A DNA stretch of 64,000 nt, from NCBI RefSeq assembly GCF_003334355.1, contig NZ_QOWP01000009.1. One strand, written 5' to 3'. Position numbers: made by a program. This document shows positions 43,391-44,922 of the stretch, one piece after another. Position 1 is the first letter of the stretch; every line of letters begins with the position of its first letter. The DNA comes from Escherichia coli. Lineage in GTDB: Bacteria; Pseudomonadota; Gammaproteobacteria; Enterobacterales; Enterobacteriaceae.

Positions 43391-44922
43391 TAATGATTTT
43401 TCTCGCGGGCAATCTTGCCCGCGCTTCTGCTCTCCCGGCGTAACCCGGATTTGCCGCTTATACTTGTGGCAAATGGACACGTTCAGGGAGGCATCAAGTG
43501 AAGAAACTCACCGATAAGCAAAAGTCCCGTCTCTGGGAGCTTCAGCGTAATCGTAATTTCCAGGCCAGTCGCCGTCTTGAAGGCGTCGAGATGCCTTTAG
43601 TCACTCTTACTGCCGCAGAGGCTTTAGCGCGCCTTGAAGAGCTGAGGAGGCACTATGAGCGATAAATTCGGCGAAGGGCGCGATCCGTATCTTTATCCTG
43701 GCCTTGATATCATGCGTAACCGGCTGAACATCCACCAGCAGCAGCGGCTGGAACAGGCCGCTTACGAAATGACGGCGCTGCGTGCTGCGACCATTGAGCT
43801 TGGTCCGCTGGTGCGCGGTTTACCGCATTTGCGCACTATCCATCGCCAGCTGTATCAGGATATTTTCGACTGGGCGGGGCAACTGCGTGAAGTTGATATT
43901 TATCAGGGTGATACGCCGTTCTGCCACTTTGCTTATATCGAAAAAGAGGGCAATGCCCTGATGCAGGATCTGGAGGAAGAAGGTTATCTGGTTGGCCTGG
44001 AGAAAGCGAAGTTCGTCGAGCGGCTGGCGCATTACTATTGTGAAATCAACGTGCTGCATCCCTTCCGGGTGGGAAGTGGTCTGGCACAGCGGATCTTCTT
44101 CGAGCAACTGGCGATTCATGCCGGATATCAACTGAGCTGGCAGGGTATCGAAAAAGAGGCCTGGAATCAGGCAAATCAGAGTGGGGCAATGGGGGATCTC
44201 ACCGCACTGCAGATGATATTTAGCAAAGTGGTAAGCGAAGCCGGGGAATCTGAGTAAAATAGCGCGGTTCTTTTGTACCGGAGCCGCCATGATCCTGCTT
44301 ATAGATAACTACGATTCTTTTACCTGGAACCTCTACCAGTACTTTTGTGAACTGGGGGCGGATGTGCTGGTTAAGCGCAACGATGCGTTGACGCTGGCGG
44401 ATATCGACGCCCTTAAACCACAAAAAATTGTCATCTCACCTGGCCCCTGTACGCCAGATGAAGCCGGGATCTCCCTTGACGTTATTCGCCACTATGCCGG
44501 GCGCTTGCCGATTCTTGGCGTCTGCCTCGGTCATCAGGCAATGGCGCAGGCATTTGGCGGTAAAGTTGTGCGCGCCGCAAAGGTCATGCACGGCAAAACC
44601 TCGCCGATTACACATAACGGTGAGGGCGTATTTCGGGGGCTGGCAAATCCACTTACCGTGACACGCTACCATTCGCTGGTGGTGGAACCTGACTCATTAC
44701 CAGCGTGCTTTGACGTGACGGCCTGGAGCGAAACCCGCGAGATTATGGGGATTCGCCATCGCCAGTGGGATCTGGAAGGTGTGCAGTTCCATCCAGAAAG
44801 TATTCTTAGCGAACAAGGACATCAACTGCTGGCTAATTTCCTGCATCGCTGATTTCTGATTGCCATTTAGTGATTTTTTATGCATATTTTGTGGTTATAA
44901 TTTCACATTTGTTTATGCGTAA

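Follow-up and report, generated by a model that had tools for sequence, protein, structure and literature searches.

We analysed a 64,000-nucleotide stretch of Escherichia coli DNA (one strand of contig NZ_QOWP01000009.1, assembly GCF_003334355.1; called the window in what follows), in which a small gene, yhfG, runs into the start of fic, which is in turn followed by pabA. The features of the locus are collected in Table 1. As claimed in the original prediction, yhfG is a 55-codon frame initiated by GTG and overlaps fic by 11 nt. This GTG is the earliest start codon within the open reading frame, and the (C/T)AGGGAGG that precedes it is kept in most orthologous loci. A small upstream partner that carries the [S/T]xxxE[G/N] motif and overlaps fic in this way is the layout of class I Fic modules, which had also been proposed and which agrees with the published description of the pair (PMC5033356). 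YhfG matches Pfam PF10832 (YhfG; E=1.8e-24) and, with 128 bits where 77 are required, NCBIfam NF007573. Residues 58-152 of Fic match Pfam PF02661 (Fic) with E=1.5e-13, and the protein scores 430.8 bits with the NCBIfam equivalog NF007672, whose cut-off is 181. The PF02661 match, together with the FIC-fold chains 5JFZ_A and 5JFF_A, places Fic among the FIC-domain proteins. An antisense open reading frame of 156 aa (43820..44290, - strand) was rejected as a gene, since no more than 29 of the 80 orthologous loci keep the frame open.

Table 1. Features of the yhfG–fic locus, in positions of the window
Feature	Position	Strand	Basis and remarks
Conserved 21-bp promoter block TTGCCGCTTATACTTGTGGCA upstream of yhfG	43451..43471	+	Conservation and literature
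-10 hexamer TATACT of the σS-dependent fic promoter	43459-43464	+	Inside the 21-bp block
Shine-Dalgarno GGGAGG of yhfG, 6 nt 5' of GTG	43486..43491	+	Sequence reading
yhfG (ecficA), FicA-type partner, 55 aa, GTG start	43498..43665	+	ORF, Pfam, NCBIfam, PDB match
SRRLEG inhibitory-helix motif [S/T]xxxE[G/N], YhfG S24-G29	43567..43584	+	Sequence reading; E28 codon 43579-43581
Shine-Dalgarno GAGGAGG of fic, inside the yhfG 3' end	43644..43650	+	Sequence reading
11-nt overlap ATGAGCGATAA of yhfG and fic, from the start codon of fic to the end of the yhfG stop codon	43655..43665	+	Sequence reading
fic (ecficT), class I FIC-domain protein, 200 aa, ATG start	43655..44257	+	ORF, Pfam, NCBIfam, PDB match
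G55 codon, site of the historical fic-1 (G55R) allele; wild type GGT	43817..43819	+	Sequence reading
Degenerate FIC signature HPFRVGSGLAQR, Fic H135-R146	44057..44092	+	Sequence reading, alignment
pabA, aminodeoxychorismate synthase component 2, downstream gene	44289..44852	+	ORF, RefSeq annotation

In a search of the PDB, the Fic protein of the window differed from chain A of 5JFZ by a change at residue 2 only, and from chain A of 5JFF by the same change and the engineered G55R of that entry. YhfG differed from 5JFF chain B solely by R51S (R51 in the window, S51 in the crystallised construct), and from the partner chain of 5JFZ by R51S and the E28G engineered into 5JFZ. This near-identity of both proteins to the crystallised chains makes it near certain that the pair is E. 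coli yhfG–fic, the EcFicA–EcFicT (ecficA–ecficT) pair of Stanger, Harms, Dehio & Schirmer (PLoS One 2016; PMC5033356), and the structural mechanism described for EcFicA–EcFicT, which we grade together with the identity of the pair, is held with the same near certainty. In gene order, motifs and overlap, the K-12 Fic/YhfG pair (5JFF, 5JFZ) is the same object, and nothing of substance differs. Every one of the 5426 complete genomes of E. coli in RefSeq matches a 901-nt stretch around the pair, usually with at least 95% identity; the RefSeq labels in the matched stretch are yhfG, fic and pabA, and yhfG is also labelled 'FicA/YhfG family antitoxin'. The pair is chromosomal at 5428 of its 5429 places in complete E. 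coli genomes. Every statement of the original prediction on the sequence proved correct, but PMC5033356 already describes the overlap, SRRLEG and the degenerate motif and suggests an altered chemistry, so that none of these points is new.

Makarova et al. 2009 predicted YhfG to be a Fic-associated antitoxin, and the gene upstream of fic was later described as encoding a FicA homologue whose SRRLEG conforms to the canonical inhibition motif (PMC5033356). SRRLEG, which the original prediction had matched to the inhibitory helix, occupies residues 24-29 and is the sole [ST]xxxE[GN] match within YhfG. By itself the motif is weak evidence, because 3.4% of shuffled YhfG sequences carry one. Its reality is nevertheless supported by the Pfam matches of both proteins and by conservation: S24, L27 and E28 are invariant in 80 species; position 29 is N in three Kosakonia-clade loci and R in three Trabulsiella loci. 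A phmmer search of the PDB with YhfG (E<=10) returned its own entries only, with VbhA and AntF not matched, so that the kinship of YhfG to other FicA proteins is drawn from the motif and the published structures. In the crystal structure S24 and E28 of YhfG bond to R146 (R2) of Fic, with a salt bridge between E28 and R146, and the complex is stable, has a 1:1 stoichiometry and melts at a Tm of 63 °C, which E28G lowers by 10 °C (PMC5033356).

The canonical AMP-transferase signature is HxFx[D/E]GNGR1xxR2. As had been noticed from the sequence, the corresponding stretch of Fic, HPFRVGSGLAQR, departs from it at the acidic, Asn and first Arg positions, with V139 in place of the acidic Mg2+ ligand, S141 in place of Asn and L143 in place of R1. 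The partner of R1, E36, is likewise replaced, by A36. The motif still has its catalytic His, its two Gly and R2. Alignment to characterised AMPylators, proposed as a check of the original prediction, set V139, S141 and L143 opposite E, N and R of both Fic-1 (HPFREGNGRAQR) and VbhT (HPFREGNGRTLR), and the non-canonical motif is therefore not a frame error.

The altered or weakened nucleotidyl-transfer chemistry that was proposed from these departures fits the published negatives. Auto- and target-adenylylation were undetected for EcFicT, even with the E28G partner, in the study that called the motif degenerate (PMC5033356), and a second laboratory detected no AMPylation of E. coli GyrB and ParE by EcFic (b3361) (PMC7479194). 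The accompanying caution, that the activity of this Fic could not be decided from sequence, was apt, as the biochemical mechanism of E. coli Fic was still termed elusive in June 2026 (PMC13327609). The authors of the structures described a conserved hydrophobic groove in EcFicT, for which they inferred substrate binding; they also record that Δfic strains are viable and that filamentation is an effect of the fic-1 (G55R) allele (PMC5033356). G55 is invariant in 81 Fic sequences. According to a passage in a secondary review, ectopic EcFicT strongly inhibits growth of E. coli (PMC10886550), an observation that, if correct, favours a residual toxin role.

Upstream of yhfG, 27 nt 5' of its GTG, lies a conserved 21-bp block, TTGC(C/T)GCTTATACTTGTGGCA. 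In 73 of 80 species of Enterobacteriaceae its TATACT, with conserved flanks, sits at the same position, and the surrounding spacer varies. TATACT is entered as the -10 of the RpoS-dependent fic promoter, without a -35, in a table of PMC5650638 that cites Utsumi 1993 and Tanaka 1995, and RpoS dependence of yhfG-fic has been reported in EDL933. A scan for σ70 consensus promoters flagged nothing upstream of yhfG, TATACT included; the promoter, which lacks a -35 and is of the σS type, was recognised only through conservation and the literature. We also considered whether the TTGC…GCAA dyad that surrounds the -10 might be an operator of the TA type; as its arms are short and, in most genera, imperfect, it is merely noted.

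The 11-mer shared by yhfG and fic is identical in 71 of the 80 species, and the layout is equal in 79 of them; from this overlap we infer that translation of the two genes may be coupled. Further downstream, the pabA ATG stands 32 nt past the last base of the fic stop codon, leaving a spacer of 31 nt, so the 32 bp given in the original prediction is acceptable. In most of the 80 species the distance from fic to the following pabA is about 31-37 nt. A scan of the + strand between fic and pabA found no terminator-like site. This, the short conserved spacer and the adjacency of the two genes in nearly all 80 species fit the co-transcription of fic with pabA that had been called probable. Tran and Nichols reportedly described both fic-pabA co-transcription and a second pabA promoter (1991).

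We compared the yhfG–fic locus from 80 Enterobacteriaceae species; yhfG orthologues were placed by tblastn and direct sequence reading, and Fic residues were counted over 81 sequences. The order ppiA-yhfG-fic-pabA-argD is kept in essentially all 80 species. The pair thus occupies one fixed chromosomal position, between ppiA and pabA, which is not the distribution of a horizontally transferred, mobile TA module, and close homologues of EcFicT had been described as confined to Enterobacteriaceae, syntenic and vertically inherited (PMC5033356). The 81 Fic sequences span 65-100% identity and share 61 invariant positions, including H135, R146, T40 and G55. Within the motif, H135, P136, F137, R138, G140, G142, Q145 and R146 are invariant, and positions 139, 141, 143 and 144 are variable. 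Position 139 is occupied by I, L, V, F, A or T, and in no sequence by D or E; at position 141, 40 sequences carry S, 40 carry N and one carries T; position 143 is L, I, M or V in 73, and R in eight early-branching species. All eight sequences with R143 also have E36 and F67, and all 73 with another residue at 143 have a residue other than Glu at 36 (A, S, M or T) and Y67. This covariation of R143, E36 and F67 reproduces the published one on an independent sample, and its occurrence at a syntenic locus indicates that the residue switch took place in situ, at the chromosomal locus. With L143, V139, A36, Y67, F71 and T40, and with the expected synteny, Fic of the window falls into the EcFicT-like subgroup 3 (Stanger 2016).

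Selection on the two genes was estimated as dN/dS by the Nei-Gojobori method (NG86), with the window as the reference. The values were 0.03-0.13 for fic and 0.03-0.14 for yhfG, comparable with those for pabA and argD; they are rough for most inter-genus pairs, where dS is saturated (>1). In pairs within Escherichia (dS 0.1-0.5), dN/dS of fic was 0.006-0.09. In one divergent E. coli assembly, 45 of 760 nt are changed, yet across both proteins only one amino acid differs. The low dN/dS and this excess of silent changes indicate that both genes are maintained and not decaying. The function is dispensable under at least some conditions, given that Δfic strains are viable and that fic of E. coli MS 21-1 is split by a natural insertion of ISEc10. 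In the assembly of the E. albertii type strain (NBRC 107761), yhfG has a nonsense codon (W13*) and fic is intact. We did not accept this as a natural knockout of the antitoxin: nine further genomes of E. albertii encode the same Fic protein and have an intact yhfG, so W13* is strain-specific or an assembly error and deserves little weight.

FIC kinases of the Doc type carry the signature HxFx(D/N)(A/G)NKR and are accompanied by a Phd-type antitoxin. NKR is absent from the Fic motif, and the partner here is Pfam YhfG, not Phd. The Doc kinase and the phosphocholine transferase AnkX illustrate how altered residues around the FIC motif can change which group is transferred (PMC5033356); the E. coli motif, however, lacks the Doc-type Lys as well as the canonical R1, which AnkX employs for CDP-choline. 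In VbhT–VbhA of Bartonella schoenbuchensis (PDB 3SHG, 3ZC7, 3ZCB), the prototype of class I FicTA, the Glu of the antitoxin αinh helix likewise forms a salt bridge with R2. Unlike E. coli Fic, VbhT has a canonical motif, is plasmid-borne and is toxic via AMPylation of gyrase and topo IV, and VbhA has three helices, whereas YhfG has two and an 8-residue deletion (PMC5033356). Fic-1–AntF of Pseudomonas bijieensis 2P24 (PDB 8WT0) is likewise a class I Fic with a small upstream partner and the same fold, the published RMSD to 5JFF being 0.9 Å (PMC13327609). Fic-1, with its canonical motif, AMPylates GyrB, and its complex with AntF deAMPylates it. In contrast, E. coli Fic has V139, S141, L143, Q29 and A36, and its activity on GyrB/ParE was undetected (PMC7479194). 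YhfG does have E28, but the acidic cleft of the Fic-1–AntF type of deAMPylase appears, from the residues, to have been replaced by Q29, A36 and V139.

The whole can be accommodated in the following scheme. Transcription starts from the σS-type promoter (TATACT -10) upstream of yhfG; translation of yhfG and fic would be coupled by the overlap, with the message probably running on into pabA. YhfG and Fic form a stable 1:1 complex, in which the first YhfG helix, ending in SRRLEG, enters the Fic active site, and S24 and E28 bond to R146 (R2) and so lock Fic. The Fic protein retains the FIC fold and the catalytic His135, with the Mg2+-binding acidic residue changed to V139, R1 to L143 and E36 to A36, and AMPylation by Fic of itself, GyrB or ParE is undetected. 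YhfG may then be a permanent regulatory or structural subunit of Fic. The pair seems to descend from a class I FicTA toxin–antitoxin module and to be now domesticated, chromosomally fixed and driven by σS. It is probably not a toxin system that arrests growth in the classical manner, and probably not a gene in decay either. A locked YhfG–Fic complex, expressed from a σS promoter and acting as a re-purposed non-ATP enzyme under selection, is in our opinion very probably the best explanation overall. As regards re-purposing specifically, the balance tips modestly towards a His135-dependent enzyme that uses a substrate other than ATP, because of the strong purifying selection, the invariance of His135, R146, S24 and E28, and the lineage-specific hydrophobic groove. 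The evidence for re-purposing is of one kind, conservation.

The FIC family is named after E. coli Fic, its founding member, whose activity and target are still sought after ~40 years. The question of its role is genuine and is not advanced by finding the pair in the window. The analysis does provide independent confirmation, across 80 species, of purifying selection on the pair; it confirms an in-place switch of R143/E36/F67 at one and the same locus of the chromosome; and it adds that E. coli Fic also lacks the acidic cleft on which the newly described deAMPylase Fic-1–AntF depends.

We weighed the locked, re-purposed enzyme against three other explanations. The most familiar would be a functional type II TA of the VbhT or Fic-1 kind, in which free Fic AMPylates GyrB/ParE, perhaps weakly, and arrests growth, and YhfG neutralises it. 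Fic-1 (E=1.7e-50) and VbhT (E=1.7e-32), which AMPylate gyrase/topo IV, are indeed homologues of Fic, YhfG carries a canonical antitoxin motif and its gene overlaps fic, several surveys list the pair among TA modules, the fic-1 (G55R) allele gives filamentation (PMC5033356), and the review passage cited above reports growth inhibition upon EcFicT expression (PMC10886550). However, R1, the acidic Mg2+ ligand and E36 are all replaced, adenylylation was not seen even with YhfG E28G (PMC5033356), a second laboratory saw no modification of E. coli GyrB/ParE (PMC7479194), and the pair is strictly vertical and part of the core genome, unlike mobile TA modules. The type strain of E. albertii, with a nonsense codon in yhfG and fic intact, also speaks against a toxin, although only one assembly shows this, possibly by error. 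Since the ATP and Mg2+ residues are gone, two laboratories saw no AMPylation, inheritance is vertical and disrupted alleles occur naturally, we give the classical toxin hardly any credence. It is also possible, though unlikely, that Fic is a catalytically dead pseudoenzyme and that YhfG–Fic acts by binding only, as a scaffold, sensor or regulator, with the conserved motif residues being structural. Three substrate- or metal-binding residues have been lost, some 40 years have passed without an activity being found, the PFxxGxG residues are known to be required for the fold of the FIC loop, and Makarova et al. predicted DNA-binding by YhfG. A purely structural role fits less well with the pattern of conservation, in which the general base His135 and R146 are invariant in 81 sequences and positions 139, 141, 143 and 144 vary, and in which a lineage-specific groove (A36, T40, Y67, F71 and position 139) is conserved beside the active site.

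The third possibility is that the YhfG–Fic complex is an active de-modifying enzyme like the Fic-1–AntF deAMPylase and that YhfG E28 is catalytic and not inhibitory. Fic-1–AntF is the closest solved relative of differing sequence (E=1.7e-50), shares the numbering H135/R146/S24/E28 and is a deAMPylase dependent on E28 of AntF; the E. coli complex is highly stable (Tm 63 °C; PMC5033356), and S24, E28 and R146 are invariant though the activity to be inhibited appears lost. The stability of the complex, however, would account for the invariance of E28 as well. Moreover, deAMPylation by Fic-1–AntF depends on a divalent metal and on the acidic cleft that E29, E36 and E139 make up, whereas the cleft residues in E. 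coli Fic are Q29, A36 and V139, position 139 is never acidic in the clade, and no cognate modifying enzyme is known. The cleft residues make the chemistry of Fic-1–AntF unlikely for E. coli Fic, and we regard the de-modifying complex as very improbable. A broader form of the idea may be imagined, and we consider it improbable too, if a shade less so: the YhfG–Fic complex, not free Fic, would be a conserved stationary-phase holoenzyme that carries out a metal-independent, His135-dependent modification or de-modification of a non-ATP substrate bound in the A36/T40/Y67/F71/V139 groove, with E28 of YhfG taking part in catalysis like E28 of AntF. If true, it would explain why S24, E28 and R146 have stayed invariant across Enterobacteriaceae long after the loss of the ATP/Mg2+ site, and why the pair became fixed in one operon with pabA.

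The promoter region of yhfG in the window contains a block that is conserved at the same position in 73 of the orthologous yhfG–fic loci of 80 Enterobacteriaceae species (L001-L080; see the table below). Conservation of this block reaches well past the TATACT -10 element of the σS-dependent fic promoter, and an imperfect dyad within it, TTGCCGC … GTGGCAA, lies on either side of the -10. The block with its dyad may be no more than the σS promoter, or YhfG–Fic may bind it as an operator and so regulate its own expression; we found no published test of an operator role for it in the literature. 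In five loci of the Kosakonia clade (L042, L047, L051, L055 and L056) the -10 element reads TATAAT instead of TATACT.

Coordinates and sequences of features in the window and in individual yhfG–fic loci
Feature	Location	Sequence or position
Promoter block	window 43451-43471	TTGC(C/T)GCTTATACTTGTGGCA
GC-rich hairpin	window 43403-43426	CGCGGGCAA-tc-TTGCCCGCG; directly past ppiA stop; without T-run
yhfG with nonsense codon, Escherichia albertii NBRC 107761 draft	L004:2844-3011	W13, TGG→TGA
fic split by ISEc10, E. coli MS 21-1 (NZ_CP146670.1)	L090:3216-6234	ISEc10 within fic
Two-gene cassette, Enterobacter sp. kpr-6	L026:3643-4429	between fic and pabA, opposite strand

Further upstream, the hairpin that follows ppiA probably belongs to the 3′ end of that gene. 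The terminator scan did not call it, and a comparable GCGCGGG…CCCGCGC hairpin was found in other genera.

In PADLOC-DB, close relatives of the window Fic (43655-44254) appear under ‘PDC-S04', a phage-defence candidate (PDLC04838, E=5.9e-75). Here fic sits at a fixed place in the core genome, which does not look like a defence island. On toxicity, the published accounts are at odds: according to a 2024 review (PMC10886550), which cites Harms 2015, ectopic K-12 EcFicT (the fic product) is strongly growth-inhibitory in E. coli, whereas a 2016 structure paper (PMC5033356), from the same group as Harms 2015, terms EcFicT ‘toxin-like' and did not see adenylylation.

In the draft genome of E. albertii NBRC 107761, yhfG carries a nonsense codon, and fic, which overlaps it, is open over its full 200 codons. 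In nine other E. albertii genomes, whose Fic protein is identical to that of NBRC 107761, yhfG is intact at 55 codons; one of them (L084) has W13R. The nonsense codon is either an assembly error or a natural loss of the ‘antitoxin' confined to this strain. In E. coli MS 21-1, fic is split by ISEc10, an IS21-family element (istA/istB), with yhfG and pabA intact. Of 5426 complete E. coli genomes, all but 2 have a match of at least 80% to the yhfG–fic pair; MS 21-1 is one of the two exceptions.

Within E. coli, SCPM-O-B-8794 (L001), the representative of the species in the genome collection, is 94.1% identical to the window over yhfG–fic at the DNA level (45 of 760 nt differ), with a single amino-acid difference, Fic Q172K. 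Its silent-site divergence from the window (dS ~0.38) is at the level of other Escherichia species; L001 may carry a recombinant allele or come from a cryptic-clade strain. The inhibitory motif of YhfG reads SRRLEN in three Kosakonia-clade species (L042, L047 and L051) and SRRLER in Trabulsiella (L031, L041 and L079), where the last position breaks the [G/N] rule.

The fic–pabA junction carries insertions in several loci. The cassette of Enterobacter sp. kpr-6 encodes proteins of 159 and 117 aa, the latter with an HTH-like C-terminus, and resembles a mobile toxin–antitoxin pair. In L036, pabA is shifted by ~840 bp, and this locus probably carries a cassette of the same type. Smaller insertions of 100-150 bp are seen at the junction in L035, L040, L056, L064 and L068.
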